A stretch of DNA of 41,497 nt, taken from a virus (taxonomy: Duplodnaviria > Caudoviricetes). Shown one piece after another: positions 2,515 to 31,266 of this stretch. The DNA lies in IMG/VR virus record IMGVR_UViG_3300048893_000063, positions 1 through 41,497 of that record; one strand, given 5' to 3'. The notes under the pieces were generated by a model. It searched no databases, had not been told where the DNA came from, and saw nothing but the letters and a program-made list of their open reading frames with translations. Both the position numbers and the translations under genes were made by a program. Position 1 is the stretch's first letter. Each line of letters starts with the position of its first letter.

Positions 2515-3785
2515 TGAATCTGCTGCTCGGCTGGCTCGGCCGCAAAATCGGCCTTACGGATGGCGCCTTCTGGGGCGCATATTTCGGCGGCGAAACCTGG
2601 ACCGGGAAGCCCGTCACGCCGCAAGGCGCGATGAAGCTGTCGGCATGGTTCGCCGGAGTGCGCCTGACGGCGCAGACGATCGCGTCGCTGCCCGGCTCGA
2701 TGTATGAGCGCAACAGCAGCGGCGATAAGGTGCCGGTGACGCAGCACGACATGCACTGGATGCTGCACGACTCGCCGAATGCCGATCAGACCGCGATGGA
2801 ATTCTGGGAAGGCCAGGGCGCCGGCCTGGCGATTGTCGGCAACGCCTATGCCGAGAAGGTTTTCAACGGCGCCGGCGACGTCATCGCGCTGAATACGATG
2901 CCATTCGAGACGACCAGGCCGCAGCGCCAGGCTGACGGATCGCTGCGTTATCCGTTCATGGACCGCGGCAAGGCCGGCTGGCTGCCGGAAGAGAAGGTCT
3001 TTCACACGCGCGGCTTCGGCACCGGCGGCGATCTCGGCCTTTCGCCAGTCGCCGCTGCAGGGTCAGCATTAAGCGGCGCGCTGGCGACCGAAGAGGCCTC
3101 GGCGAAAATGTTCGGCAAGGGCATGCGCGCCGCCGGCTTCATGCTGTCGCCGACGACGCTGACGACGCCGCAGCGCGACCAGCTGCACAAGAACGTCATC
3201 GATCCGATCACCGGGCCGGATGGCGAAGGCGCGGTCGGCGTGCTCGAAGCCGGCTTCAAGTGGCAGCCGGCGAACATTCCGCCGAAGGACGCCGAAATGA
3301 TCCTGTCGCGGCGTTTCAACGTCGACGACGTCTGTCGCTGGCTCGGCATTCCGCCGATCCTGGTCGGACACGCCGGCGAAGGTCAGACCATGTGGGGCAC
3401 CGGCGTCGAGCAGATCATGCTCGCCTGGCTGACGCTCGGCCTGCGGCCGTACCTGGTGCGCATCGAGCAGTCGATCCGCAAGCGGCTGATCGCGCCGGCC
3501 GATCAGCGCCGGCTGTTTTGGGAATTCAACATCGAGGGCCTGCTGCGCGGCGACAGCGCGGCGCGCGGCGAGTTTTACAGCAAGCTGTTCCAGGTCGGCG
3601 CCATCAATCCCAATCTGATCGCGTCGAAGGAAAACCTGCCGAAGCCAAACGGCGGCGAGCAATACTTCGTCAATTCCACCTATGTGCCGATCGAGGAAGC
3701 CGGGCAGCTGGTGCGATCGCTGCCGACGCCGGCGGCCGATCCCGGCAAGCCGTCGAAGCCTGCGAGACCGCCTGGAGGACTCTAG
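2514..3785 (+). CDS. HK97-family portal protein
   Basis: SPNADQTAMEFWE, GNAYA, VFHTRGF..G.SPV, FNIEGLLRGD motifs; follows TerL. Confidence 0.96.
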   Translation: MNLLLGWLGRKIGLTDGAFWGAYFGGETWTGKPVTPQGAMKLSAWFAGVRLTAQTIASLPGSMYERNSSGDKVPVTQHDMHWMLHDSPNADQTAMEFWEGQGAGLAIVGNAYAEKVFNGAGDVIALNTMPFETTRPQRQADGSLRYPFMDRGKAGWLPEEKVFHTRGFGTGGDLGLSPVAAAGSALSGALATEEASAKMFGKGMRAAGFMLSPTTLTTPQRDQLHKNVIDPITGPDGEGAVGVLEAGFKWQPANIPPKDAEMILSRRFNVDDVCRWLGIPPILVGHAGEGQTMWGTGVEQIMLAWLTLGLRPYLVRIEQSIRKRLIAPADQRRLFWEFNIEGLLRGDSAARGEFYSKLFQVGAINPNLIASKENLPKPNGGEQYFVNSTYVPIEEAGQLVRSLPTPAADPGKPSKPARPPGGL

Positions 3786-4931: not shown

Positions 4932-6281
4932 ATGAATCGTTTTCTGAAGATTGGCACCGGCCTCTGCCTGGTGCTCGCATTGGTCGCGATCGTCGCGATC
5001 ATTGCGCAGACGTCGCCCGGCGAGCTGCTCACCGCCGGCAGTGTGCTTGCCAATGCACCGGCGCCGCTCGCTGCCGACTGGCAACGCGAGCTGCAGGCGG
5101 TTAATGCCGCCTTCGAGACTCGCGACAAGGAATTGCGCGCGCTCGTCGAGAAGGGCAATTCCGAAGTTGCGGCAACCGGCAAGATTGCCGGCGAGACGCA
5201 GGCCGCGCTGCAGGCGCTCGTCGCCGATGGCACGAAACTGCAGGCGCGGCTGCTCGACGTCGAGCAGAAGCTTGGCCGGCGCAACGCCGGCGGCGGCGCG
5301 CAGGCCGTCGACTTCGATGCGCTCTTCGCCGAGCACAAAGGCCTTCAGCAACTGAAGGCGGGCCAGAGCCGTTCGGCGCGCATCGAGCTGACTCGCCATC
5401 AGCTGATGCACGGCGACATGCACGCTTCGATAACGTCGCTGCCGTCTTCCGCCGGTGACCTGATCGTCCCCGATCGGCGGCCTGGCATCCTGACGCCGGC
5501 CGAGCGCGGCTTCACCGTGCGCAACCTGGTGATGCCGGGCCGCACCGCATCGAACGCGATCGAGTTCGTGCAGGAAACCGGCTTCACCAACAACGCCGAC
5601 ACGGTGTCGGAAGGGGTGCTGAAGCCGGAGTCGCAGCTCACGTTCTCGATGGAGACTCGCGCGGTGCGCACCATCGCGCACTGGGTCAAAGCGTCGAAAC
5701 AGATTCTCGACGACGTGCCGCAGCTGCTCTCGTATGTGTCGGGCCGCCTGCGTTACGGCCTGGCTTACAAGGAAGAGCTGCAGCTCCTGCTCGGCGCCGG
5801 CACCGGCACCGATCTCGACGGTCTGAAGACCAACGCGACGGCCTATGACACTGCGCTGACCAAGGCCGGCGACACGAAGATCGACGTGATCCGCCACGCG
5901 ATCACGCAAGTGCGCGTCGCCGAGTACGCGGCGACCGGCGTCGTCATCAATCCTTACGATTGGGACGACATCGAAACCGAGAAGGATGACAACGGCCGTT
6001 ATATCTGGGCCAACGTCAACCTGAGCGGCGAGCAGCGTCTCTGGCGCCTGCCCGTGATCGACACGATGGCGATGCCGCGGGGTGAATTCCTCGTCGGTGC
6101 GTTCACGCCGGCGGCGCAGATTTTCGATCGCGAAGATGCCAGCGTCGTCGTGTCCAGCGAAGATCAGGACAACCTGGTCAAGAACATGGTCACGATCCTG
6201 GTCGAAGAGCGTCTCGTGCAGGCGATCTACCGGCCGGAAGCGATGGTCGAAGGCGATTATTCGCAGGCCAGCGGCGGCTGA
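4932..6281 (+). CDS. Major capsid protein, HK97 fold, with hydrophobic N-terminal extension
   Basis: V.EG.LKPES, TIAHWVKASKQILDD, LWRLPVI, KNMVTILVEERL motifs; coiled-coil delta-like N-terminal region. Confidence 0.96.
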   Translation: MNRFLKIGTGLCLVLALVAIVAIIAQTSPGELLTAGSVLANAPAPLAADWQRELQAVNAAFETRDKELRALVEKGNSEVAATGKIAGETQAALQALVADGTKLQARLLDVEQKLGRRNAGGGAQAVDFDALFAEHKGLQQLKAGQSRSARIELTRHQLMHGDMHASITSLPSSAGDLIVPDRRPGILTPAERGFTVRNLVMPGRTASNAIEFVQETGFTNNADTVSEGVLKPESQLTFSMETRAVRTIAHWVKASKQILDDVPQLLSYVSGRLRYGLAYKEELQLLLGAGTGTDLDGLKTNATAYDTALTKAGDTKIDVIRHAITQVRVAEYAATGVVINPYDWDDIETEKDDNGRYIWANVNLSGEQRLWRLPVIDTMAMPRGEFLVGAFTPAAQIFDREDASVVVSSEDQDNLVKNMVTILVEERLVQAIYRPEAMVEGDYSQASGG

Positions 6282-6310
6282 TAACCCCTACCGCAGACCA
6301 ATCGTCAGGG

Positions 6311-6338
6311 CGGCTCGGCAGCAATGCCGGGCCGTTTT
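6311..6338 (+). terminator. Intrinsic terminator after capsid gene
   Basis: CGGCTCGGCA-GCAA-TGCCGGGCCG hairpin followed by TTTT. Confidence 0.75.
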
Positions 6339-6389
6339 GCTTTGTAAGGGTAAGGGTGTGCTGTGCGTTCAACCTGGAGAAATTTTCCC

Positions 6390-6737
6390 ATGATGAAGAT
6401 GAAGGCGCTAAAAACTTTTCTCGGCCGTCCCGGCGAGGGCGAAGGCATCGACAACACGGTGCGCAAGGGCAAAGAGTTTTCCGTCGCCACGGAGCAGCGC
6501 GCGGTCGAGCTGGAGAAGATCGGCTGCGCGCAGCGGCTGAAGGGGCAGGGGCGGCCGGCGCGGCCGGCGCCGGCGAAGGCGAACACGGCCGCGGGCGCAG
6601 GCCCTTTGCATTCAGCTGGTGGCAAGACTGGCGAGGCTGCGTCGCCATCGTCGTCGCTGCCGGGCCTTCAGCCGCCGGTGCCCGTGAAGCGCTCGCCAAA
6701 GCGTCGCGGCGTAAGGGCCGGCGCCGCCCGCGACTGA
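6390..6737 (+). CDS. Small post-capsid (head accessory-like) protein; zero-frame product of a putative frameshift gene
   Basis: GGAGA RBS; MKMKALKTF...G.EF.V....A.EL...G.A pattern common in genes after capsid genes; low-complexity Ser/Pro/Arg tail. Confidence 0.75.
   Translation: MMKMKALKTFLGRPGEGEGIDNTVRKGKEFSVATEQRAVELEKIGCAQRLKGQGRPARPAPAKANTAAGAGPLHSAGGKTGEAASPSSSLPGLQPPVPVKRSPKRRGVRAGAARD
6602..6608 (+). other. Putative -1 frameshift slippery heptamer C_CCT_TTG
   Basis: X_XXY_YYZ in phase with ORF 6390; the -1 frame opens directly into the GT-like domain (PFAFSWWQDW...). Confidence 0.7.
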
Positions 6738-7240
6738 TCGTCGTCAACGAAAGCTGGCGCCTGGCGCCGTTCGCAGATGTCCTTTACGGCTGCGACGGCG
6801 CCTGGTGGCGCAAGCGCGGCGGCGTGCCGGAATTCGCCGGCACGAAGCTGACGCAGGATGCGAAAGCGGCCTGCGACTTTCCCGATCTGCACAAGGTCGA
6901 CGTGCGCAAGGGTGCCGATCGCATCCTGACCGACCATGCCGGAGCGATCGGCGACGGCGGCAACTCCGGCTTTCAGGCGATCAACGTCGCGGCGCAATTC
7001 GGGCCGCGGCGCCTGGTGCTGCTCGGCTTCGACATGCGCATCGATCGCGGCGCGCACTGGCACGGCCGCCATCCGCCGGGCTTGAACAATCCGACCGATC
7101 GCAACCTGGTGCGCTGGCGCCTGGTGATCGACCGATCGGCTGCGGAGCTTGCCGCGCTCGGCATCGAGGTCGTGAACGCCAGCCCCGTGTCGCTGCTGAA
7201 CGCCTTTCCCGTCATGTCGATCGAGGACGCGCTAAAATGA
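6602..7240 (+). CDS. Maf/DUF115 (MptE-like) glycosyltransferase-like domain, probably expressed as a frameshift fusion (6390..7240, ~283 aa)
   Basis: IVVAAGPS, IVVNES, YGCD, NSGFQAINVAAQFG..RLVLLGFD, EVVNASP motifs; no in-frame ATG/GTG/TTG near the domain start. Confidence 0.75.
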   Translation, partial: PFAFSWWQDWRGCVAIVVAAGPSAAGAREALAKASRRKGRRRPRLIVVNESWRLAPFADVLYGCDGAWWRKRGGVPEFAGTKLTQDAKAACDFPDLHKVDVRKGADRILTDHAGAIGDGGNSGFQAINVAAQFGPRRLVLLGFDMRIDRGAHWHGRHPPGLNNPTDRNLVRWRLVIDRSAAELAALGIEVVNASPVSLLNAFPVMSIEDALK

Positions 7241-7440
7241 CACACGATCTAAGCGACAAGCAGCTGCGCACCCTGCGCGATCGCTGCGAGCCAGGCTTAA
7301 AGCAGGGCGCGCTGCATGCGCCGCGCGATCCGGTGCAGTGTTTCGCCTATGTGATGCTTTCGTGCTTCGCCATGTCGGTCGACGTCGAGATCGCGCGGCG
7401 GGCCGAGCGCAGCGCTGCCGAGCAGGCGCGCAACAAATGA
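7237..7440 (+). CDS. Hypothetical protein
   Basis: ATGA overlaps with neighbours at both ends; 67 aa. Confidence 0.6.
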   Translation: MTHDLSDKQLRTLRDRCEPGLKQGALHAPRDPVQCFAYVMLSCFAMSVDVEIARRAERSAAEQARNK

Positions 7441-8069
7441 CCGGCACCCTGGCAAAAATCCTGGCGCCGACGTCATGGCCTTTGAGTCAGGCCGATGCGC
7501 GCGCCTTCGTCGTGATCGACGACGAGGACGCCGATCACCTGCGCGTGCTCGACATGGCGATCCGCGCAGCAACGCAGTATTGCGAGACGCGCAGCGGCCT
7601 GACGGCGCAGCGCACGACCTACCAGCTGCGGCTCGACCATTGGCCGCATTGCGATCCGCGGCGGTTCGATCACGGCGACACCAGCGCCGACATTCTGCTG
7701 ACTGCGGCGCCGGTGCGCGACGTGCTGTCGGTGACCTATGTCGATCCTGACGGCATCGAGCAGACCGTCAGCGACGCCGACTGGACCTGGGAGCGCACGC
7801 CGGAAGGCGCAACGGTGTCGCTGGCCGCCGGCTTCAGTCGGCCGACGCTGCGATCGAACCGCAAGGGCGTCGTGCGCGTGCTGTTCGACGCCGGCTTCGA
7901 CACGCCAGGCGAAAGCGGCAGCGGCGACGATCCGGAGCTGCAGCTGCCGGAGCAATTCATCATGGCGGTCGCGCAGCTCGTCGGCCACTTTTACGAAAAG
8001 CGCGACGCCGGCGGCGACGATATGAAGGCGGCCGATTGTCTGATCGACCAGGTGAAGGTTTATCGCTGA
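7437..8069 (+). CDS. Head-tail connector (gp6/phiE125 gp8-like)
   Basis: PLS..DARAF...D, AATQYCE...G, SVTYVDPDG..QT, F.AGF, LPE....AV.QLVGHFYE.R. Confidence 0.9.
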   Translation: MTGTLAKILAPTSWPLSQADARAFVVIDDEDADHLRVLDMAIRAATQYCETRSGLTAQRTTYQLRLDHWPHCDPRRFDHGDTSADILLTAAPVRDVLSVTYVDPDGIEQTVSDADWTWERTPEGATVSLAAGFSRPTLRSNRKGVVRVLFDAGFDTPGESGSGDDPELQLPEQFIMAVAQLVGHFYEKRDAGGDDMKAADCLIDQVKVYR

Positions 8070-9259
8070 TGAAATATCCGCATGTGATCACCGAGGCGCG
8101 CACCTTGGCGCTGCTGCACGACGGCCACTCGATCGCGCGCTTCGGCGACGGCGAGCTGCGGCTGGCGATCGGCAAGGAATGCACCAGCCAGCGTCGCGTG
8201 CCGGGCCTGGCCGAAGAGCTGCGCGCGATGCTTCAGGCGCCGCGGAATTGCCTGATCGGAATTCCCAACTTTGCGCAGACGCCGAAGGCCGAAAACTGGA
8301 CGCGCTACGCCGGCGAGCAGTTCACGCGGCTCTATGGCGCGAAGGAATATGCTTCGAGTTTCATCACCAGGCCGGACTCGGCGCCGTGGATCGATACGCC
8401 GGAATACTGGGCCGAGGTGCGCCGGCTCTGGGCCGGCCGCGACGTCATCCTGGTGCGAGGCGACGAGAAGTCGATCACGCCGGCGATGCTCGATGGCTCG
8501 GCCGCCAGCGTGCGGATCGTCGACGGGCCGCGGCAACACGCCTATGCGGACATTGACGCGATCGAGAAGGCGATCCTGAAGGCCGCGGGCGACGTCGCGC
8601 AGCAGTTGCACAGTGCGCCGCTGGTGATCCTGTGCCTCGGCGCGACCGCGACGGCGCTCGCCTATCGCCTGGCGCAGAAGCCAGGCCTGCAGGCCGTTGA
8701 TCTGGGTCATATCGGCATGTTCATGCGCCACGCCGGCGCCTATCGCTATCTGGCCGGCGATCTGGTGTCGGCCGACTATCGGGAGCAGCTCGAAATTCTG
8801 CACAGCTCGGCGCGGAAGTGGGGAACGGACGGCGCCAAGCATGCAGAAAAGGTGCTGCAGCTCGTCGACGAACTGGGCGCGAAAACGATCCTCGACTATG
8901 GCTGCGGCAAGGGCCGGCTGGCGGAGGCGATCGCGCCGGTGCGGGTGCAGGGCTACGATCCCGGCATTCCAGAGCGCGCCGGCATGCCGAAGCCGTGCGA
9001 TCTCGTCGTCTGCACCGACGTGCTGGAGCACGTCGAGCCGGATCGATTGCCGGCGGTGCTCGATCATATCGGCCGCCTGGCCGGCAAGGCCGCTTATCTG
9101 GTGATCTCGACGCGCGAAGCGCTGGCGATGCTGCCTGACGGCCGCAATGCGCACCTGATCGTTCGGCCGGGGTGCTGGTGGGTCAACGTCTGCCGCGCGA
9201 TGGGCGAGGTCGAGGCCGAGATCGACGGCAAAGAGGTTCGGCTGTGCATCCGCAAGTAA
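8069..9259 (+). CDS. GT-D fold (DUF1792-like) glycosyltransferase fused to class I SAM methyltransferase
   Basis: N-term SIARFGDGE, LIGIP, SSFITRP, LCLGATAT, AVDLGHI; C-term ILDYGCGKG, CTDVLEHV, DGRNAHL. Confidence 0.85.
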   Translation: MKYPHVITEARTLALLHDGHSIARFGDGELRLAIGKECTSQRRVPGLAEELRAMLQAPRNCLIGIPNFAQTPKAENWTRYAGEQFTRLYGAKEYASSFITRPDSAPWIDTPEYWAEVRRLWAGRDVILVRGDEKSITPAMLDGSAASVRIVDGPRQHAYADIDAIEKAILKAAGDVAQQLHSAPLVILCLGATATALAYRLAQKPGLQAVDLGHIGMFMRHAGAYRYLAGDLVSADYREQLEILHSSARKWGTDGAKHAEKVLQLVDELGAKTILDYGCGKGRLAEAIAPVRVQGYDPGIPERAGMPKPCDLVVCTDVLEHVEPDRLPAVLDHIGRLAGKAAYLVISTREALAMLPDGRNAHLIVRPGCWWVNVCRAMGEVEAEIDGKEVRLCIRK

Positions 9260-9900
9260 CAACGCCGCCGATCGTCGTCACCGACGAGGCGCTGCCGTAC
9301 CTGGTCGCGCAGAAGGGGCGGCTGCAGCCGCTGGCGCACGATCGCGACGCCTGGCTGATGGGTTACCGCCAGGCGATCGATCGCGACTATCGTTTGATTG
9401 CACCATATCTTCCGCCGAAGCCTGACGGCCACGCGATCAAAATCCTCGACATTGGGTCGGGCCTCGGCGGCATCGACGTAATGCTATCGCGGCACTACGG
9501 CGGCGCGGCGCAGGTCATCCTGATGGATGGCGCCGACGATCCGCCGGTGATGGAGCTGCATCGCAAGACGTTCAACGACATGCGCGTCGCCGAGCGCTTC
9601 CATCGCGCCAACGGTGCGGCGCCGATCGGCTGGATCGATGCCAACGGCGACCGGCTGCCGGCTGTCGGCGCTGGCGCCTGGCCGTTTGACCTGGTGCTGT
9701 CGCTGGGCAGCTGGTGCTTCCATTACGAGCCGGCGATCTATCTCGACCAGGTCAAAGAGGCGATCGTCGCCGGCGCCGTGCTGATCCTCGACGTGCGCAA
9801 GCAGCGGCCGAGCTGGGCTGCGCAGCTGATCTCGACCTTTCGTCTGCTCGCAATCGTTCACGTCAGCGACAAGATCGACCGCATGGTGCTGCGCGCATGA
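9244..9900 (+). CDS. Class I SAM-dependent methyltransferase
   Basis: ILDIGSGLGG, FDLVLSLGSWCFHY; GTG start with GAGG RBS. Confidence 0.8.
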   Translation: MHPQVTTPPIVVTDEALPYLVAQKGRLQPLAHDRDAWLMGYRQAIDRDYRLIAPYLPPKPDGHAIKILDIGSGLGGIDVMLSRHYGGAAQVILMDGADDPPVMELHRKTFNDMRVAERFHRANGAAPIGWIDANGDRLPAVGAGAWPFDLVLSLGSWCFHYEPAIYLDQVKEAIVAGAVLILDVRKQRPSWAAQLISTFRLLAIVHVSDKIDRMVLRA

Positions 9901-10499
9901 TCGAGAATGTCTGCGTCATCGGCGGCGGCTGGTCGGTGCGGGGTGTCGACCTGGCGGCGCTGCCCGGCATCCTGATCGGCGTCAATGATTCCGCCATTCA
10001 CGCGCGCGTCGACATTGCGGTCAGCATGGATCGGCTGTGGGCCGAGCATCGCTTCATCGAGCTGCGCGAGCGCCGTCGCCTAACCTACCTGCGCCGCTCG
10101 GCCGTGCAAAATCTCGACACGCGCTGGCCGTGGCTGCACGTCTTCGACAACGATCACGAAAGCGTCGAGCTGAGCGAAGACCTATCGCGGCTCAATGGCA
10201 CGAATTCCGGCGTCTGCGCGATCAACCTGGCGTTTCAGCTGCGGCCGAGGCGCCTGGTGCTGCTCGGCTTCGACATGAACCGCAGCCAGCACGGCGCCGC
10301 GCATTGGTATCCGCCCTATCCCTGGTCGACCGAAGCCGGCTCGACCAGCATCGGAAAATATAACGCATGGGCGGCGCAGTTCGATCGCATCGCGGCGCAA
10401 TGCAAGGCCGCAGGCATCGACGTCGTGAACGCCAGCCCGTCGAGCGCGATCAAGTCTTTCCGCAAGACGTCTGAATTCCACAAGGGGGCTGCAGCGTGA
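9897..10499 (+). CDS. Second Maf/DUF115-like glycosyltransferase-like protein
   Basis: VIGGGWS, IGVND, NSGVCAINLAF...RLVLLGFDM, DVVNASP; paralogue of 6602..7240. Confidence 0.75.
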   Translation: MIENVCVIGGGWSVRGVDLAALPGILIGVNDSAIHARVDIAVSMDRLWAEHRFIELRERRRLTYLRRSAVQNLDTRWPWLHVFDNDHESVELSEDLSRLNGTNSGVCAINLAFQLRPRRLVLLGFDMNRSQHGAAHWYPPYPWSTEAGSTSIGKYNAWAAQFDRIAAQCKAAGIDVVNASPSSAIKSFRKTSEFHKGAAA

Positions 10500-11218
10500 G
10501 ACAAGTCACGATCGTGCTCGCGTACTATCTCAACGCCGGCATGCTGCAGCGGCAATACGAAGAGCTGCGTGCGCTGCCGGAGCCGCTGCGCGAGCAGCTC
10601 GCGCTGATCGTCGTCGACGACGGCTCGCCGGTGCCGGCGATCGGCGCCGAGATCGGCATGCCGCTCAAGATATTCCGCATGCGCAAGGATGTGCGCTGGA
10701 ATCAGGACGCCTGCCGGAATATCGGCGTGCATCACGCGGAGACGCGCTGGGTGCTGCTGACCGATATGGATCACCTGGCACCGCTCGCGACGCTGCAGTC
10801 GCTGGTCTATGGCAGCTTCGACCAGGCCGCTGTTTATAAATTCGCGCGCGTCTCGGCGCCTGATCTGGCGCCGTACAAGCCGCATCCGAATTCCTGGTTT
10901 ATGACTCGGAAAATGTTCGACCGGATCGGCGGCTATGACGAGCGCTTCGCCGGCTATTACGGCACCGACGCCGACTTCCGCGATCGCGTCAAGAAAATCG
11001 CCAGGATCGAGCAGCTCGACGACGTCTTGATCCGTGTGCCGCGCGAAGTGATCCCTGACGCTTCGACGACAACCTATGGCCGGAAGGAAAAGCAGGACGC
11101 GGTCGGCATCAAGCGCGTGATGCACGAGCGCGATCGCGTGAGGGGCTGGAAGCCGCTGCGCCTGACGTTTCCTTACGATTGCGTCTGGGAGCAGCCGGTC
11201 AAGGGCGGCGCGTTCTGA
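10496..11218 (+). CDS. GT-A glycosyltransferase (GT2/GT7-like)
   Basis: IVVDDGS, CRNIG, LLTDMD (DxD), IGGYDERFAGYYGTD.DF. Confidence 0.9.
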   Translation: MRQVTIVLAYYLNAGMLQRQYEELRALPEPLREQLALIVVDDGSPVPAIGAEIGMPLKIFRMRKDVRWNQDACRNIGVHHAETRWVLLTDMDHLAPLATLQSLVYGSFDQAAVYKFARVSAPDLAPYKPHPNSWFMTRKMFDRIGGYDERFAGYYGTDADFRDRVKKIARIEQLDDVLIRVPREVIPDASTTTYGRKEKQDAVGIKRVMHERDRVRGWKPLRLTFPYDCVWEQPVKGGAF

Positions 11219-11928
11219 TGCTGGCCGTCGTCTGCTGGAAGTGGAAGCCGAAGCCCGGCTATCGATCGACGTTCGGCGCCGACCAGGTCAACGTGCTGCG
11301 CTCGATGGTCGAGCGGCACTATGCCAGGCCGCACCAGCTCGTTTGCATCACCGACGACGCCGCCGGCATCGATCCGCGGGTGCGCGTCGTGCCGCTCTGG
11401 AGGGATCACGCGACGCTGCCGTCGCCGCACGGCGGCAACAATCCGAGCTGCTATCGCCGGCTGCGCGCCTTCTCGGCCGAGGCCGCCGAGCTGATCGGGC
11501 CGCGCTTCGTGTCGGTCGATCTCGATGCAGTCATCGTGCGCGACATGCGGCCTGTCTGGGACCGCGACGCAGACTTCGTGATCTGGGGCGATACCAATCC
11601 GACGACGCCCTACAACGGCTCGATGTGGATGCTGCGCGCCGGCACCAGGCGCAAGGTCTGGGAAACTTTCGATCCGAAGCGCTCGCCGCGGATCGGTCTG
11701 TCGAAGCGCTACTTCGGCAGCGACCAGGCCTGGATCGCCGCCTGCCTCGGCCCAAATGAGCGGCGCTGGACGCGCGCCGATGGCGTTTACAGCTATCGAA
11801 ACGAGATCGCGCCGAAGGGCGGCGATCTGCCGGCCGATGCGCGCATCGTGTTCTTTCACGGCCGCCATGATCCCTGGCACAGCGACATTCAGGCGAAGCA
11901 CGCCTGGGTGCGCGAGCATTGGAAGTAG
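11218..11928 (+). CDS. GT-A glycosyltransferase (phage GT8-like)
   Basis: VVCWKW, LVCITDD, VDLD (DxD), YNGSM, SDQAWI, IVFFHG..DPW. Confidence 0.82.
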   Translation: MLAVVCWKWKPKPGYRSTFGADQVNVLRSMVERHYARPHQLVCITDDAAGIDPRVRVVPLWRDHATLPSPHGGNNPSCYRRLRAFSAEAAELIGPRFVSVDLDAVIVRDMRPVWDRDADFVIWGDTNPTTPYNGSMWMLRAGTRRKVWETFDPKRSPRIGLSKRYFGSDQAWIAACLGPNERRWTRADGVYSYRNEIAPKGGDLPADARIVFFHGRHDPWHSDIQAKHAWVREHWK

Positions 11929-13628: not shown

Positions 13629-14060
13629 ATGGCTGCAGTGGGAACGGTGCGCATCGTGTGGGGCAACGGCGAGGACGACTTCTGCATCGCCAGGCCCGGC
13701 GAGATTTTTGCGCTGGAAGACAAAACCGGCGCCGGCCTCGGCGAGATCAGGATGCGGCTGCAGGACGGAAGCTGGCGCCTGACGATGGTGCGCGAGACGA
13801 TCCGCCTGGCGCTGATCGGCGCCGGCATGGATGCCGACAAGGCGATGAAGGCCGTCGAGCTGCACGTCGACAACAACGTGAAGGGATACGCGCCGAGCAT
13901 CCTGATCGCGCACGCGATCGTCGCCGCGGCGCTGGTCGGCGTGCCGGATGATCCGGTGGGAAAAACGCCGGCGCCGGGGGCCGCGAAACAGGACCAAGTC
14001 TCTTCCACGACGACGGTCGCCTCCGACGCTCTGCGGTCTATGGAATCGGGGCAGGCTTAG
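13629..14060 (+). CDS. Tail assembly chaperone (gpG; GTA gp10-like)
   Basis: VRETIRLALIGAGM motif; lies between tail tube and tape measure. Confidence 0.88.
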   Translation: MAAVGTVRIVWGNGEDDFCIARPGEIFALEDKTGAGLGEIRMRLQDGSWRLTMVRETIRLALIGAGMDADKAMKAVELHVDNNVKGYAPSILIAHAIVAAALVGVPDDPVGKTPAPGAAKQDQVSSTTTVASDALRSMESGQA

Positions 14061-14212
14061 GCTGGACGCCGCGGCAGACCGATCAGGTGCCGATCTGGGA
14101 GCTGGCGGCCTGCATCGACGGCTTCAACCGCGCCAACGGCGGCGAGGACGCGATCGCGCCGCCGACCGATCAGGAATTCGAGGACGCGAAGCGTCTGCAC
14201 GGCGATCTCTGA
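13958..14212 (+). CDS. -1 frameshift extension of tail chaperone (gpGT, ~194 aa fusion)
   Basis: G_GGA_AAA at 13958-13964; -1 frame reads ...AVYGIGAGLGWTPRQTDQVPIWELAACIDGFNRANG...DL*. Confidence 0.85.
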   Translation, partial: GKNAGAGGRETGPSLFHDDGRLRRSAVYGIGAGLGWTPRQTDQVPIWELAACIDGFNRANGGEDAIAPPTDQEFEDAKRLHGDL

Positions 14213-14225
14213 AGGATCACAAATC

Positions 14226-16160
14226 ATGCCGCCTGCCCTGAGATTTCCAGTCACGGCCGACTTGTCGGAACTTGACAAGAACATGAACGAGGCCGGGCAG
14301 ATCGTGCATGAAAAGGCAGATCAGATCGAAGGCGAGTTCAACAATATCAACAAAGCCGCGGCCGGCCTGGCGCTCGGCTTTACGGCTGTCGGCGGCGCGA
14401 TCGCTGCGTCGCTTTTGAGCGCGACGACGTCGCTGGCGAAGCTCGGCGATCGCGCCGACGATCTGCGGCTGCCCGTCAATCTGATCCAGGCGCTAAGCGT
14501 CGTATCGGATGAGGCGCGCGTGCCGGCGGCGCTATTGACGACGGCGATGGACAAATTTGCCGAGGCCTCGAAAAAGGGCGGCGACGAAGCGAAGACCTTC
14601 GAGAAGGCGCTCGGCAACGTCGGCGACAATTTCCTGCAGGCCTTCAAGTCGGCCGACTCGCAAGAAGCGCGCCTGAAGATCGTCAGCGACGCGCTGCGAT
14701 CGACAACCGACGAAGTCAAACGCGCGCAGCTGTCGCTGCAGGCCTTCGGCTCTGATAACGAGCGCCTGATCGGCGTGCTCGGCAACGGCGCGTCGTCATT
14801 CGAGCGCTATCGCCAGCGCGCGGCCGAGCTGGGCCTTAACATCAACGAAAGCATGGTGAAGGCCGCGCAGGAGGCGAAGAGCCAGCTGCTGCTGCTGTCG
14901 CGCGTGCTGTCCGATCAATTCACTGGAGCTGTCACCGGCCTGATCCCGCTGCTTTTGAAAATGCTGCCGGCTCTGCAGGCGATCGCGCTGGCCGCGAAGG
15001 CGGTCGGCGCAATCTTTGCCGACGACGATCGGAAGTCTGTCGGCCAGCTTCAGACCGAGCTGGGCGGCCTGGTCGACGAGTGGGTGAAGCTCAAAGAAGC
15101 ACGCGCCGCACTGGAAAGCCCTGACCAATCGCGCGCCGACGTATTGCGCGACAAGCTGCGCGGATGGCTCGGCCTGACCGTCACCAACGAAGAGGAAATG
15201 AATTCGCTGGACGAGGCGATCAAGCGCGTCGAGTCGCGCGCCGACACGGTGCGCAAGCTGATCGCATCGAAGGGCGCGGAGCCGGCGGCGACGTCAGACA
15301 AACCGGCCTTTGCGCCTCGGCCATCATTGAAGGATGAAAGCCGCGACCGCTTCGCCGCTGCCGCTGACTCGGTTGAGAAGCGCACGGCCGCGCTCAATGC
15401 CGAGACGGCGGCGATCGATCTCGGAACCGCTGCGCGCGAGAAGGCGAAGATCGCGGCGCAGCTGCAGACCGTGGCCATGCAGGTCAACAAGGAAGCCGGC
15501 CTCGGCGACAAGGTCGTGACCGAAGAGCAGACCAGGGTGATCGACGAATTCGCGGCGGCGTTCGGTCGTGCATCCGAGGCGATGGAGAATGCACGATCGC
15601 CGCTGGCAACGTTCGGCCGAGACTCGGCCAATCTCGGCAAGCAGCTCAATACGTTTGCCGCGACGTCACTCGACAGCATGACGAATGCACTCGCCGACGT
15701 TGTGACACATACCAAGACCGCGGCCGAAGCCTTCTCGGCGATGGCGAGGTCGATCCTGAATGATCTCGCGAAGATCGCGATCCGCCAGTCGATCACCGGG
15801 CCGATCGCGAAAGCCTTCGGCGGCCTCGATCTGTTCAACGTCGGCGGCGGCGTTGGCAACAATGCGTCAGGCACCGACAACTGGCGCGGCGGGCCGACAT
15901 GGGTCGGCGAAAACGGGCCGGAGATTTTGAACGTGCCGCGGGGGTCGCAGATCATTCCCAACAACATCGCCAGCAAGGCCGGCAGCGGCGGCATGGTGTT
16001 TCAATTCACCAGTGCGCCGGTGTTTCAGGCCGGCATCGGGCCGGCCGACATGGCGCTGATCAGGGCGCAGCAGCAATCCTTTGACAGCAGGCTGCGCAAC
16101 GATGTGCCTGGCATCGTGCGCGCGGCGCTGCGCAACGACCGCGACGTGCTGAACCGATGA
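14226..16160 (+). CDS. Tape measure protein
   Basis: 644 aa Ala-rich helical protein; C-term ASGT..W.GG..WVGENGPE...PRGSQIIPN. Confidence 0.92.
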   Translation: MPPALRFPVTADLSELDKNMNEAGQIVHEKADQIEGEFNNINKAAAGLALGFTAVGGAIAASLLSATTSLAKLGDRADDLRLPVNLIQALSVVSDEARVPAALLTTAMDKFAEASKKGGDEAKTFEKALGNVGDNFLQAFKSADSQEARLKIVSDALRSTTDEVKRAQLSLQAFGSDNERLIGVLGNGASSFERYRQRAAELGLNINESMVKAAQEAKSQLLLLSRVLSDQFTGAVTGLIPLLLKMLPALQAIALAAKAVGAIFADDDRKSVGQLQTELGGLVDEWVKLKEARAALESPDQSRADVLRDKLRGWLGLTVTNEEEMNSLDEAIKRVESRADTVRKLIASKGAEPAATSDKPAFAPRPSLKDESRDRFAAAADSVEKRTAALNAETAAIDLGTAAREKAKIAAQLQTVAMQVNKEAGLGDKVVTEEQTRVIDEFAAAFGRASEAMENARSPLATFGRDSANLGKQLNTFAATSLDSMTNALADVVTHTKTAAEAFSAMARSILNDLAKIAIRQSITGPIAKAFGGLDLFNVGGGVGNNASGTDNWRGGPTWVGENGPEILNVPRGSQIIPNNIASKAGSGGMVFQFTSAPVFQAGIGPADMALIRAQQQSFDSRLRNDVPGIVRAALRNDRDVLNR

Positions 16161-21508: not shown

Positions 21509-23617
21509 ATGATGAAACGCATCGCTTCCGCGCTCGCGGTCGCCGCGCTGTTGCTGGCCGTCGCGCCGGCGCAATCGCAGCAGTTCAATAGCGGCTATCT
21601 GCAGGCCAACGCCGGCGCCAGCCCGGCGCCGGCACGCGCAACGGCGCCGTCGACCTGGTTCGATCGCTGGGCCGGCTCGACGCCCGGCTTCGTGCTCTAT
21701 CGCGGCGCCAGCGCCTGGCTCGCAGCGGCGCCTGGTGCTACCAGCGGCGTGCAACCCTATGACGCCGAGCTGGCGGCGATCGCGGGCCTGACGTCGGCCA
21801 ATAACAAGTGCTTCTATTGGACCGGCAGCGGCACCGCGGCCAACTTCGACTGCAGCTCGTTCGGTCGCGGCGTCTCGAATGCGGCCGACGCTGCTGCGCT
21901 CCGCGTGCTCGGCGGCCTGGTGATCGGCAGCGACGTGCAGGCCTATGACGCCGATCTGGCGGCGATCGCCGGCCTGACGTCGGCCAATAACAAGTGCTTC
22001 TATTGGACCGGCAGCGCGACGGCCGCGAATTACGATTGCAGCTCGTTTGGCCGCAGCGTCGCCAATGCGGCCGACGCCGCGGCGCTGCGCGTGCTCGCCG
22101 GCGCCGTCATCGGCACCAACGTGCAGGCCTGGGATGCCGACCTTGATGCGCTGGCCGCCTTCACAAGCACCGGCTTCGCGGCGCGCACGGCCAGCAACGC
22201 ATGGGCGCAGCGCACGTTGCAGGCGCCGGCCGCGGGCTTCACCATCACCAATCCGGCCGGCGTCGCGGGCGATCCGACCTTCGTGCTGGCGAATGACCTG
22301 GCGGCGCTGGAGGCGTTGAGCAGCACCGGCATCGCCAGGCGCACCGGCACCGACGCCTGGTCGGTCGGCACGCTGGTCAGCAATGCCGAGCTGGCGACGA
22401 TGGTCGACCAGCGGATCAAGGGCAACGTTTCGGGCGGCACCGCGGCGCCGAGCGATCTGACGTCGGCGCAGGTGACGGCGTTCCTGACCGCGTGCGTCGG
22501 AGACAGCGGATCGGGCGGCACGAAGGGCGCGGTGCCGGCGGCTGGCGCCGGCGACGCCGCGGCCGGCAAGTTCCTGAAGGCCGACTGCACCTTCGACGTG
22601 CCGTCTGCAAGCGGCGGCGGCGGCATGACCGACACCGAGCGGCAGAATTCGCTGCTCACGCTGGTCTATCAATCGAAGCTGTTCGTCGGTTATCGCCGCG
22701 TGGTGAAGCTGTTCGCCGATGGCTACAAGGCGAGCGACGGCGTCAATTCAGGATCGTCGACGGGTTACACGGTGACGACGGGCAGCGGCTACGTCTCGCC
22801 GGCAACCGTTGCGACCGCTTATGGCACCGTGGCGCCGAATGCCGGCGGCACGGGCGACCGATCGGCCTCCATCACGGTCTCGGCCAGTTCTGGGCTGATC
22901 GCCTCCGGCTCGGCCGTCAATCTTGTCGACGGCAGCCTGACCGAAAACACGTCAGACTCGATCACCTTGACGGGGAGCCGCAGCGTTGGATCGCTGCCGG
23001 ATTTCATCCGTTTCGACTTTGGTGTCGGCGCCTCGAAGGTGATCAACGAGGCGAAATGGTATCGCACCGATACCGCCAACTATGGCACTTGGAAGTGGCA
23101 AGGATCGAACGACGCTTCGAGCTGGACCGACATAGGATCGAGCTTCACGCTTGGCGGGGCAACGACGCAGACCGACACGGCCATGTCGGCGAACACGACC
23201 GGATGGCGTTACTATCAAATCCTCGGCGTGTCGGGCACCACAGCGGCAGCCAACTGGCACCGCGAAGTCGAATTCAAGATCGCGGACTCGCCGATCGGCA
23301 CGCAGAATATGACGCTAATCACGACGTCGCAGACGACGTCGTCGAGTGTCGGCAACGGCCGCGTGCTGATCGAGTACGATCCGAATGGATCGTCGCCGAC
23401 CTTGAACACCGACATCACGGTCGACGTCACCTGCGACGGCGGCTCGCATTGGGCGGCGGCGACGTTGTCGAGCGTCACCGTGAACAGCCAGGGCGGGCGC
23501 AGCGTCGCCGAGACGGCCGACACCGCTTGCACCAGCGGCACGTCATCGGCGGCCAGGCTGAAGACGCTGAACAACAAGAACGTGCTGTTCCACGGCTTGA
23601 CGCTGACGGTGCATTAG
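21509..23617 (+). CDS. Tail fibre-like protein with N-terminal signal peptide, internal repeats and discoidin-like domain
   Basis: VQAYDADLAAIAGL fibre repeats; W..QGSND..SWT...RYY discoidin (F5/8C) motif; MKR+hydrophobic core+AQS. Confidence 0.8.
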   Translation: MMKRIASALAVAALLLAVAPAQSQQFNSGYLQANAGASPAPARATAPSTWFDRWAGSTPGFVLYRGASAWLAAAPGATSGVQPYDAELAAIAGLTSANNKCFYWTGSGTAANFDCSSFGRGVSNAADAAALRVLGGLVIGSDVQAYDADLAAIAGLTSANNKCFYWTGSATAANYDCSSFGRSVANAADAAALRVLAGAVIGTNVQAWDADLDALAAFTSTGFAARTASNAWAQRTLQAPAAGFTITNPAGVAGDPTFVLANDLAALEALSSTGIARRTGTDAWSVGTLVSNAELATMVDQRIKGNVSGGTAAPSDLTSAQVTAFLTACVGDSGSGGTKGAVPAAGAGDAAAGKFLKADCTFDVPSASGGGGMTDTERQNSLLTLVYQSKLFVGYRRVVKLFADGYKASDGVNSGSSTGYTVTTGSGYVSPATVATAYGTVAPNAGGTGDRSASITVSASSGLIASGSAVNLVDGSLTENTSDSITLTGSRSVGSLPDFIRFDFGVGASKVINEAKWYRTDTANYGTWKWQGSNDASSWTDIGSSFTLGGATTQTDTAMSANTTGWRYYQILGVSGTTAAANWHREVEFKIADSPIGTQNMTLITTSQTTSSSVGNGRVLIEYDPNGSSPTLNTDITVDVTCDGGSHWAAATLSSVTVNSQGGRSVAETADTACTSGTSSAARLKTLNNKNVLFHGLTLTVH
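21749..22156 (+). repeat. 186-bp (62-aa) tandem repeat, ~2.2 copies
   Basis: Units start at 21749, 21935 and 22121; first two share GGCCTGACGTCGGCCAATAACAAGTGCTTCTATTGGACCGGCAGCG. Confidence 0.9.
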
Positions 23618-24468
23618 CGCCGGAATTGATAGTTAAACTGCGACGGGTAGGTGCCGGCCTCGATCATGTCGCTGTGCCGCTTGGCGACTTGGCAAAGACC
23701 GGCGCGCGCCAGCGCCGACTGGACTTCGATGCAGCACTCGGCGCGCGCGTCGTCGAGTTCGATCGACACGGATTGCAGCCTGCGATCCGCCAGCGTCTTG
23801 ACGGCGCCGCGCACGATCCGGTTCTCGATGCCGTCGACGTCGATCTTGATGTGTGTGGGGAACGGCGGATCGAAGCGATCGATGAAGTCGTCGATCGAAA
23901 GGCCGATCATGCCTTGCTTGAATGAGGGAACGAATTGGTTGCCGCGTTCGTCCTGTTCGATGCCGAAGCTCGACAGCGCGCCGCCGAAGCCCGTCGTTTG
24001 CATATTGAGGCTGTCGGCGATCGATGCGTCTGAGAAGGCCATACAATAGGCGCGGCACGACGTCGAGCCGTTGAGCTGGATATTCCGATTCAGCAAATAG
24101 TAATTCGCAGCGGACGGCTCGAAAGCCAAAACCTGCACCGCTGAATTCATCGCGGCGTAAACGGAATAAAGCCCGACGTTCGCGCCAATGTCCCAGAGCA
24201 CCGCGCCGCTCTGGAAGGTATCGATCCACTCGATCGTTTCCGGTTCCTTGGTCAGCAGCGTGCGCGCGCGCCAGAGCGCGACGTCGCCGATGCAATAGAA
24301 CGACACCGGGCCGCGCGCCGTTGCGATCGTCTCGATCGTCTCCAGCAACGGTTCGGTGCCAAGCGCTGTCGCTTCGGACAGCAACCGTCGGCCGGTTTCC
24401 CCCGTCGCGCCGACAAGAGCGCGAAGGGCATCAACGGCGCTTCGTCTAACTGCATCCTTGATCGTCAT
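23614..24468 (-). CDS. FkbM-family methyltransferase (antisense moron)
   Basis: KEPETIEWI, WDIGANVGLYS, AFEP, HIKIDVDG.E. Confidence 0.92.
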   Translation of the reverse strand: MTIKDAVRRSAVDALRALVGATGETGRRLLSEATALGTEPLLETIETIATARGPVSFYCIGDVALWRARTLLTKEPETIEWIDTFQSGAVLWDIGANVGLYSVYAAMNSAVQVLAFEPSAANYYLLNRNIQLNGSTSCRAYCMAFSDASIADSLNMQTTGFGGALSSFGIEQDERGNQFVPSFKQGMIGLSIDDFIDRFDPPFPTHIKIDVDGIENRIVRGAVKTLADRRLQSVSIELDDARAECCIEVQSALARAGLCQVAKRHSDMIEAGTYPSQFNYQFRR

Positions 24469-24497
24469 GGGCCGATGCTACGGCGGCACAACCGAGA

Positions 24498-25730
24498 ATG
24501 GAAGCCATGCTTAAACACCCTGTATTTATAGCGGTTCTGACGCTCTGGCTGGCGCTGCTCGCGCCGGCGCCTGGTGTCACGGCCGAGATCGGGCCGGTGA
24601 TGACGGCGCCGACGTCGGCCGGCTGTACGGCGAGCGCGCGCGGCGGCGACGCCTCGACCTGGGGCGGCGGCGGCCAGGCCTGGCGTCTGTTCGATCGTAT
24701 CGTCTCCGGGCAAAACGGCTGGTATGACAGCCACTCGATCACGTCGAGCGTGCCGGATTGGGCGCAGCTGACATGCGCGGCGCCGCTTGCGGTCGCGTCC
24801 TATGCCATCCGCAGCCGCTGTGACTCGTCGGGCGATGAGGCGACGGCCTTCGTGCTCGCCGGATCGAACGACGGCGGCGCGACGCTTACGTCGCTTGATG
24901 CGCGCAGCGGCGTCAGCTGGTCGTCGGCGTGCCAGGAGCAGACCTTCACGATCGCGTCGCCCGGCAGCTTCACGACCTACCGGCTGACGGTGACGGCCGC
25001 CAATGCCGACCAGCCGGTGATCACCGAGCTGCGACTGTTTTCGGACGCGGGCGATCCGCCGGCCGCGGCGATCGCAGGCGGCGTGATCGCCAAGGTGGTG
25101 CTGACCAGGCCAGGCTCGCTCGATCTGCTCGCCGGCACGGCGCCGGCGTCGATCCCTGCGCGCGACAACGCCGCCGAGTTTTGGGGTGACCTGGTGTCGC
25201 GGCATGTCTCGGCGCAGGGCATGCTGGCGCTGATCGGCGGCAGCGTCGCGGTGATCGGCGACAGCCACACGCAAGGCTTCGACGTTTCGCAGATCAGTCC
25301 CTTTGCGTTCAATTACGGCATCGGCGGCGATTCGGTCGCCGACGTGCTCAACCGGATCGGCAGCTATTCGTCGCTGCACAACGCCGGCGCGATCGTGCTC
25401 TATGGCCTCGGCGGCAACGATGCCAATCAAGGTTATACGGCCGCACAGATCGAGGCGCGGCTGACGATGCTCTGGGCCTGGGTCAGCGGGCCGCTGGTGG
25501 TGATCAAGATTCCGCCGGCGAAGCCCGACGAGACGGCCAAGCAGGCGACGATCGAGGCCGTCAATGCCTGGACCGATACTTTCCTGGCGGGTCGTGCCAG
25601 CACGATCGTCGTCGACAATAATGCGTGGATCATCGCCAACGGCGGACTCGACGCGAGCGGGCACCTGACGCCGGAAGCGAAGCTGCGCAATGCGGCGAGC
25701 GCCGCGGCTGCGGTCGCGACGTTTCATTGA
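24498..25730 (+). CDS. Secreted discoidin-domain + SGNH/GDSL esterase
   Basis: Signal peptide; F.L.GSNDG...YRL.VT discoidin motif; IGDSHT, GIGGD, GGNDA, D..H blocks. Confidence 0.8.
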
Positions 25731-30234: not shown

Positions 30235-31266
30235 TCAGGCGCGCGCCTTCCGTTTGGCCTTGGCGATCGGCACCGGCGCCGACCAGGCGGCCAGGCTCGC
30301 CGCGATCGACGGCGCCAGGTGCGCGGTGTTTAGGTGCGCATAGCGCAGCACCATGCGCTCGCTCTTCCAGCCGCCGAGCGCCATCAACGCCGCCAGGTCG
30401 CGATTGGCCGCGTAGTGCCAGCTGGCCCATGTGTGCCGGCAGTCGTGCGGCCGGAAGTTTTTGATGTTGGCTCTGCGGCATGCTCCCATGAAGGCGGTTT
30501 TGATCTGGCCTCCACCTGGCGCCGTCTTGATCGCATAGGGCGATCCGTCGTCGGTCCTGAAAACCATGCCTTTGCGATGGCGCAGCTTCCGCAGCTCGGC
30601 GACGACGCGGCCGTGCAGCGGCACGCCGCGGCTCGATCCGTTCTTGGTGTCGACGAAAGCAACATGGCCGCGCACCAGGTCGACGTGCTGCCAATCCAAA
30701 TACAGCGCCTCCGAGACGCGGGCGCCGGTGCCGAGCAGGAAGACGATCAGCGGGTGCAGGTGCGGCGCGCAGTTGGCGATCAGCCGCTCGGCCTCGGCGA
30801 AGGTGATCCAGCGCACGCGGCCAAGCGGCAGCTTCGGCCGCTCGATCAGCTTGCGATCACACCATCCCTTTTTTGCGCCGTGATGCAGCACCGCGATGAT
30901 CGGCGCATAGCCTTGGCGCACGCGCGTCGCCGGCGCCGCATCGGGGTACAGCTCGCGCACGACCTGGTCGACGAGCTGCTGATCGATGCGGCCGAGCGGC
31001 ACGTCGCCGAGCTTCTCGCCGGGTCGCTTCAGGAAGCGCGCGTCGCCGCCGTTCTCTATGAAGCTGACGGCCGCCTGCGCGAAGGTCGCGGTCGATGCTC
31101 TTCCAAAGATACTACTTTGGATGATCTGCCATTCGCGCTGGGCGACGATCGCTTCGGCGGCGGCGCGGTTGTCAGTGCCTGTAGTTTCGCGGACCAGGAC
31201 GCCGCGGACGGTGCCGGTGATGTACCAGTGCGGCCGGCCTTTTCGTCTTTTGAGCTTGAGGGGCAT
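30235..31266 (-). CDS. int: Tyrosine recombinase (integrase)
   Basis: TGARVSEAL, TKNG..R, HDCRHTWAS, LGGW....RY (R-K-H-R-W-Y). Confidence 0.96.
   Translation of the reverse strand: MPLKLKRRKGRPHWYITGTVRGVLVRETTGTDNRAAAEAIVAQREWQIIQSSIFGRASTATFAQAAVSFIENGGDARFLKRPGEKLGDVPLGRIDQQLVDQVVRELYPDAAPATRVRQGYAPIIAVLHHGAKKGWCDRKLIERPKLPLGRVRWITFAEAERLIANCAPHLHPLIVFLLGTGARVSEALYLDWQHVDLVRGHVAFVDTKNGSSRGVPLHGRVVAELRKLRHRKGMVFRTDDGSPYAIKTAPGGGQIKTAFMGACRRANIKNFRPHDCRHTWASWHYAANRDLAALMALGGWKSERMVLRYAHLNTAHLAPSIAASLAAWSAPVPIAKAKRKARA

Follow-up and report, generated by a model that had tools for sequence, protein, structure and literature searches.

How is an enzyme domain translated when its reading frame overlaps another gene and offers no usable start of its own? 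This question arises in the window analyzed here (the whole 41,497-nucleotide stretch, a 41.5-kb soil phage genome of an HK97-type siphophage), where a small gene behind the major capsid gene runs into a transferase-like domain in the −1 frame. Based on sequence comparison, we conclude that ribosomal −1 slippage very probably makes a hidden fusion protein here and in about seventy distant relatives. This conclusion is supported by the conservation of the layout, the phase of the slip signal, the absence of starts, and the existence of natural in-frame fusions.

The features between the capsid gene and the tail chaperone gene discussed below all lie on the plus strand. The HK97-type major capsid protein gene (4932..6281; PF05065, E 7e-53) is directly 5' of the small gene. 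Between the two lies a GC-rich hairpin followed by a T-rich tract (6306..6345), which is terminator-like by eye; a terminator scanner made no call for this hairpin in the window. A Shine-Dalgarno-like GGAGA (6376..6380) precedes the ATG at 6390 by 9 nt. The small 0-frame ORF (6390..6737, 115 aa; model pLDDT 81) matches phrog_2616 (E 4e-6), with relatives that match DUF7210/DUF7302, and comprises an N-domain of ~50 folded residues, a linker, and an S/P-rich and K/R-rich tail, the tail being the part that overlaps the enzyme frame. In the frame of this ORF, CCCTTTG at 6602..6608 reads C_CCT_TTG, and from this slippery site the −1 frame continues PFAFSWWQDWRG into a Maf/CstII-fold transferase-like domain (6602..7240; phrog_4603, E 4e-41), running from PFAFSWWQDW to the TGA at 7238-7240. 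The small ORF and the enzyme frame overlap by 136 nt. If some ribosomes slip back one base at C_CCU_UUG, the predicted products are a 115-aa protein (11.9 kDa) and, besides it, a 72 + 211 = 283-aa fusion (30.6 kDa), while the gene-caller version of the enzyme is truncated to 138 aa. An earlier sequence-only reading had placed a canonical heptamer in phase at the domain boundary and had named GTG 6356 as the only upstream start, and both observations hold: this GTG is the only in-frame ATG, GTG, or TTG 5' of the enzyme domain in the window. For comparison, ten other structural genes of the window contain a single in-phase XXXYYYZ heptamer in 3675 codons, and CCT accounts for 19 of 187 Pro codons there. 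Among named relatives of the enzyme, the closest come from Alphaproteobacteria. Reading the window by eye, we also noted an integrase-like ORF at 30235-31266.

Such an overlap could also be produced by a sequencing error or by gene decay that broke an ordinary fused ORF, and four in-frame fusions do exist among the relatives (see below). Over 6324-8500, no differences are seen in the only contig that spans the site, which may itself be the source of the window; run X2, likewise free of differences, extends over 6237-6571 and ends short of the slippery site, and run X3 is a relative. This explanation is refuted by conservation, since the same frame offset is found in 72 non-redundant loci; the sequence-only reading had listed a 1-nt sequencing error among the findings that would refute it, and we give the idea a negligible probability.

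To describe this conservation, we used loci gathered by enzyme-domain searches, in which all but one query began 3' of the slippery codons. The first set contained 249 loci including the window, corresponding to 181 domains after 90% de-duplication and 136 with a profile score of at least 190. Within 25 codons, 74 of the 136 domains have no ATG, GTG, or TTG and 62 have one. An in-phase CCCT is present in 62/74 start-less domains and in 4/62 own-start domains; for in-phase CCCTTT, the corresponding counts are 36/74 and 0/62. Three loci (L116, L145, and L217) that passed the 25-codon no-start filter were dropped from the 74 for lack of a 0-frame small ORF, the CCCT of L145 being a chance Pro-Trp. 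In the 71 remaining loci, CCCT occurs 61 times in the shift phase and 3 and 5 times in the other two phases, and CCCTTT occurs 36 times in the shift phase and not at all in the others. Among upstream Pro codons of the same 71 loci, only 3 of 197 are C_CCT.

In a larger set of 362 loci (205 non-redundant enzyme domains), a small-domain match lies upstream of 77 enzyme domains, 72 of them in the −1 layout, 4 in frame, and 1 otherwise, a ratio of 72/77 that is inflated by a small-domain profile built mostly from frameshift loci; the remaining 128 domains have no such match upstream. The phase and start tests are independent of this bias. None of the 72 loci with the −1 layout has a start within 25 codons; 44 carry a canonical heptamer and 62 a CCCT, 68 have either of these in phase, and the other four (L016, L091, L148, and L241) show no clear signal. 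The enzymes of these 72 loci are 40-60% identical. On a FastTree enzyme tree, the label of the loci changes about 15 times, with at least 3 changes forced by strong branches; related loci are not independent observations. The overlap, whose conservation the sequence-only reading had named as a check, is conserved in 72 loci; the full CCCTTT that it named together with the overlap is not universal. In addition, the 0 frame remains open over the first 19 or more codons of the enzyme in 59/61 frameshift loci and in 28/62 controls, so the tail of the short product appears to be under selection.

In three loci missed by the small-domain profile, which missed at least that many, a comparable small ORF behind the capsid gene overlaps an enzyme that lies in the other (+1) frame (L030:445-510, L033:2030-2095, and L173:1350-1415). 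The junction reads TTT CGC in all three, and since the ATG of L030 is ACG in L033, a +1 slip at UUU_C is possible in this group. In a separate group, 27 of 65 own-start loci (e.g., L017, L023, L115, L121, L195, and L223), a long upstream ORF stops inside the N-terminal motif of the enzyme. This ORF, a head-tail adaptor or collagen-like gene, ends mostly in NCC_TGA, and the enzyme occupies the +1 frame; several of the ATGs in these loci derive from codons for Asp-Gly in the gene upstream. By their sequence, these loci may represent either translational coupling or a shifty stop.

The same comparison bears on whether the enzyme is simply made from an independent start, either GTG 6356 or a non-canonical codon, with the overlap reflecting gene packing only. 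GTG 6356 is in frame and has TAAGG upstream, and the cultured phages D3 and PMG1, which have the same layout with an in-phase C_CCA_AAG, carry an in-frame GTG 8 codons before the heptamer. However, 49 of 61 relatives have no ATG, GTG, or TTG at all back to the preceding stop, in 14 of the 61 a −1 frame stop lies no more than 10 codons upstream of the enzyme, and C_CCU, though rare, keeps strictly to a single phase. We therefore consider an independent start very improbable. Homologues that have their own starts are found as well, in PAJU2 and Eowyn. The pmgN/pmgO overlap of P1, a candidate for the same system, was rejected, as it uses another frame and each gene has its own ATG.

Which part of the signal matters can be read from its variation. 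Of 62 sites, 36 have UUN as the codon after C_CCU, and most others have ACN, AUN, UCN, CCG, or CGN, so that only C_CCU, not the full heptamer, is near-invariant. The canonical heptamer that the sequence-only reading took as the signal is therefore present in phase in the window, but across homologues its conserved core is C_CCU. Lineages without C_CCU often use C_CCA_AAG (L092 and L245) or A_AAA_AAG (L129 and L234), and phage S20 has the layout with C_CCT_TTG. In the consulted part of the review by Atkins et al. (PMC5009743), a Z_ZZN tetramer is given as the minimal −1 site. With a variable A-site codon and a Z_ZZN core, the sequences point to a peptidyl-tRNA-Pro that moves from CCU to CCC, i.e., a slip of a single P-site tRNA-Pro is the likely event.

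One might instead attribute the fusion to RNA polymerase slippage, in which one base is added near the site and a similar product would result. For this mechanism, the tie of the motif to one codon phase would be needless, and homopolymers at the site reach at most 3-4 nt in 60 of 61 loci. These features leave polymerase slippage with a very small probability, and slippage by the ribosome is the reading we retain.

The analysis did not establish any stimulatory element. The stem at 6618-6649 that had been proposed as a stimulator could form on paper, but the predicted minimum-energy fold is a different one (49-nt z −0.61). A longer predicted hairpin (6615..6679), beginning 6 nt 3' of the slippery site, has a z of −2.15, with 7 of 200 shuffles as good, and its role as a stimulator is unsupported. 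Downstream folding in frameshift loci is no stronger than in own-start homologues, whether compared by shuffling (p 0.07 and 0.80) or by synonymous recoding (p 0.91), and RNAalifold found no consensus structure on 61 loci. A 6-bp helix is unbroken in 17/17 loci that have CCCTTT at the window's spacing, with the Trp-Trp codons forming its 5' arm; no compensatory, two-sided changes occur in it among these 17 close loci. The data thus give no support to the stem as a conserved stimulator. Upstream (9-14 nt 5'), a Shine-Dalgarno-like signal shows a modest enrichment, averaging −6.7 kcal/mol over 61 loci against −5.3 kcal/mol for synonymous controls; the window's own is weak, at −3.3 kcal/mol.

The predicted transframe product exists as an ordinary gene in nature: the four loci mentioned above (L201, L061, L074, and L352) encode the small domain and the enzyme as in-frame fusions. 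In L201, a single ORF with both domains directly follows the capsid gene, and this locus is the sister of a frameshift locus, L104 (SH 100), with which it shares 147/197 residues of the enzyme and 28/48 of the N-domain. Altogether, the two-product reading proposed from the sequence has strong support. Stand-alone homologues of the enzyme are P1 pmgO, PAJU2 ORF010, and CcrColossus gp126, and the RefSeq annotation of D3 orf7 starts at an ATC inside the enzyme domain. PAJU2 ORF010 (L249) and a further stand-alone homologue, Eowyn LLCLJKAH_00005 (L255), carry the depositor label “structural protein”. Phage phiNP (L252, OR565852.1) has an unannotated intact enzyme homologue with its own GTG at 2920-3460, located 5' of an annotated sialyltransferase-like gene and terS.

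The enzyme domain was modeled with a pLDDT of 96, and the model has a CstII/Maf-type Rossmann-like catalytic fold. Its best fold match is Maf (5mu5; Z 15.3, rmsd 3.2, 180 aligned), followed by archaeal HPPK/MptE (8sd5, Z 12.5), SteA (Z 11.0), and CstI (2p56, Z 10.6); in a Foldseek search, CstII and Maf are at the top, with CstII heading the list. Sequence searches were less informative, with no glycosyltransferase match in Pfam and nothing in a PDB sequence search with the enzyme. The family is labeled “alpha-2,3-sialyltransferase” in PHROG, which is an annotation. Conserved motifs are an N-terminal GPS, a central NSGFQA, GFD, and HWH, which we take to correspond to the donor-binding and catalytic motifs of Maf/CstII. 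Maf and the sialyltransferases CstII and CstI (5mu5, 1ro7, and 2p56) share the fold, but here only a 200-aa catalytic core is present, at 11-15% identity. The neighboring genes favor the same reading. Downstream of the head-tail adaptor gene (7437..8069; phrog_442, E 3e-15), a glycosyltransferase/methyltransferase cassette (8069..11928) lies within the neck module. It consists of a GT-D plus methyltransferase gene, an ORF that resembles a methyltransferase, the second phrog_4603 paralogue, which starts from an ATG of its own (9897), a GT2 gene, and one more glycosyltransferase gene. Among the tail-fibre genes at 23614-25730, there are an ORF that reads by eye as an FkbM-like methyltransferase and an SGNH/GDSL-like protein with an F5/8-type domain, possibly representing more glycan-modifying functions.

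Given this fold and these neighbors, a glycosyltransferase is the best reading of the modeled domain, and the glycosyltransferase-like call made from the sequence gains support from the fold. The domain could alternatively be an MptE/thiamine-pyrophosphokinase-like diphospho- or phosphotransferase joined by the same frameshift: the only Pfam match is MptE-like (E 0.012, below the cut-off), and the MptE diphosphokinase shares the fold of the domain (HPPK 8sd5, Z 12.5). Maf nevertheless scores higher over its 180 aligned residues, CstII leads the Foldseek list, and the enzyme adjoins GT2, GT-D, and other glycosyltransferase genes, which makes a phosphotransferase improbable.

What the small domain contributes is suggested by its position and fold. 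In lambda, the gpFI gene follows the major capsid gene, and the C-terminal domain of gpFI is its capsid-binding part. Here, 58 of the 70 loci other than the window were tested, and 54 of them have a capsid gene upstream (recognized by Pfam in 47 and by PHROGs in 7 more). In L012 and L022, an HNH/endonuclease VII-like gene is directly 5' of the small gene, in the usual place of the capsid gene. Of 62 members of the small-domain family, 35 match phrog_2616, 7 match DUF7210, and 6 match DUF7302; the predicted fold is a small beta-alpha one. The first row of its Foldseek search is the gpFI C-terminal domain (2lsm), a weak match (E 0.48) whose Z of 4.6 is tied with the GINS B-domain and the L9 N-domain; a PDB sequence search gave only weak S4 and GINS matches. 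In the Atlas, the small domain further matches a part of a viral GT4 cluster with 219 members (TM 0.65 between predicted models), which we treat as a lead only. A complex prediction for the N-domain with the capsid protein scored 0.57, with 0.39 for an unrelated-partner control, and was used neither way. A second copy of the domain begins, in frame, ORFs of 345-399 aa right after the enzyme in L012 (3174-4370) and L014 (4608-5642); the L012 ORF is phrog_6804, that of L014 has no family match, and both are glycosyltransferase-like only by eye.

From gene position, the weak gpFI-like fold, and the reuse of the domain on other ORFs, the enzyme may dock on the capsid or neck and may have the “initiating” role ascribed to it by the sequence-only reading. 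Maf glycosylates flagellin at Ser/Thr. In the proposed mechanism, the shared N-domain would be a capsid-binding module like the gpFI C-terminal domain, an identification to which we give about an even chance. The abundant short form would act at the (pro)head, and the rarer long form would tether the glycosyltransferase to the phage head and attach the first sugar to a Ser/Thr residue of a head protein, in the manner of Maf on flagellin, after which the cassette at 8069-11928 would extend the glycan, so that sugars are placed on virion proteins. Capsid-targeted glycosylation of this kind, with the short head protein in excess over a capsid-tethered enzyme that starts the virion glycan, is in our judgment about as probable as its negation, and the explanation as a whole, a frameshift fusion that tethers a glycosyltransferase to the head for virion glycosylation, is favored by the slightest degree.

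The main rival to this mechanism accepts the frameshift and gives it a different purpose, mainly a low enzyme dose. The N-domain would then have its own job, as a gpFI-like packaging chaperone, and the enzyme would target the neck, the tail, phage DNA, or a host structure. It is the main rival because 128 of the 205 homologues have no small-domain match upstream and P1 pmgO, in the portion of the source consulted, is non-essential in the laboratory (PMC10695390). The enzyme family thus often works without the small domain: many homologues follow adaptor or collagen-like genes, those of P1, PAJU2, and CcrColossus stand alone, and the repeated label changes on the enzyme tree fit as well. On the other hand, the N-domain remains attached to the enzyme in the in-frame fusions, where no frameshift is involved, and the small domain is found again as the beginning of other long ORFs. 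We regard this dosing role as unlikely, though a serious contender, and tethering to the head as the preferred reading.

Placed among known systems, the locus resembles the lambda-type G/GT frameshift. As the consulted part of the recoding review describes it (PMC5009743), G/GT likewise yields a short product and a rarer −1 fusion with a common N-domain from a morphogenesis operon, at an in-phase slippery site whose signal varies between lineages. By contrast, the head module behind the capsid gene is affected here, the added part is an enzyme fold rather than a binding domain, and the site lies between the capsid and head-tail adaptor genes, not between the tail tube and tape measure genes as for a tail chaperone. 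The window also has a separate tail chaperone site of the known type, GGGAAAA at 13958..13964, which supplies the first frameshift implied when the present one was called the second. The tail assembly chaperone gene around it (13629-14241), with its −1 frame open, appears as an ordinary G/GT-type frameshift. The system thus works like the G/GT frameshift but is no member of that family. Other parallels are the C-terminal extensions of capsid and tail-tube proteins (T3/T7 gp10B, Lactobacillus A2, and Listeria A118/A500/PSA), for which the same portion of the review (PMC5009743) describes head-module recoding, shift sites that in some cases contain Pro codons, and in-frame relatives, as here; unlike these, the shift occurs in the gene after the capsid gene, and a transferase takes the place of the appended Ig-like domain.

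Lambda gpFI and homologues such as TP901-1 MCP3 (PMC13595911, PMC4493119) offer another parallel; in lambda, as here, a small gene follows the major capsid gene. In the excerpts consulted, gpFI is described as bridging capsid and terminase-DNA (PMC13595911). The fold match is weak and common to GINS-B and L9N, however, and in the present system the domain occupies the N-terminus and continues into an enzyme. For TP901-1, the proposed frameshift leads from capsid to MCP3, and in the covered part of that report it was not seen on blots (PMC4493119). For glycosylation, a second-hand account of mycobacteriophage Che8 reports a phage-encoded glycosyltransferase cluster and glycans on the major capsid protein, and the portion covered places the glycosyltransferase genes of the F1 phage described there close to its genome's 3' end and mentions no frameshift (PMC11256854); in the window, by contrast, such genes lie inside the head-neck module, and glycosylation is a prediction. 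The word “glycosyltransferase” is absent from 300,000 of the 449,034 characters of the frameshift review (PMC5009743). Across literature titles and abstract openings, we found no earlier description of this frameshift.

Tailed phages have one widely conserved frameshift, that of the tail chaperone, and scattered capsid or tail extensions. The system described here would add a further frameshift, located in the head module and appending an enzyme, whose coding sequence gene callers truncate, as seen in the window and in D3 orf7. The exchange of the minimal C_CCU signal with C_CCA_AAG, A_AAA_AAG, or in-frame fusion offers a natural series in which −1 slippage of a single tRNA in bacteria can be studied. 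Should the head be the substrate of the enzyme, a function could be assigned to DUF7210/DUF7302-like genes, and glycosylation of virions could be tested in a Pseudomonas phage that is in culture. Tentatively, and with somewhat less confidence than for the single steps, we suggest that many HK97-type Proteobacteria phages, including D3, decorate their own heads with sugars by means of a Maf-like protein O-glycosyltransferase. A conserved P-site C_CCU −1 frameshift would hook this enzyme to a gpFI-like capsid-binding domain, and the domain would serve as a reusable address tag for phage glycosyltransferases. If true, tailed phages would have a second conserved frameshift that is widespread, and virion glycosylation would have a route outside the phages of Actinobacteria.
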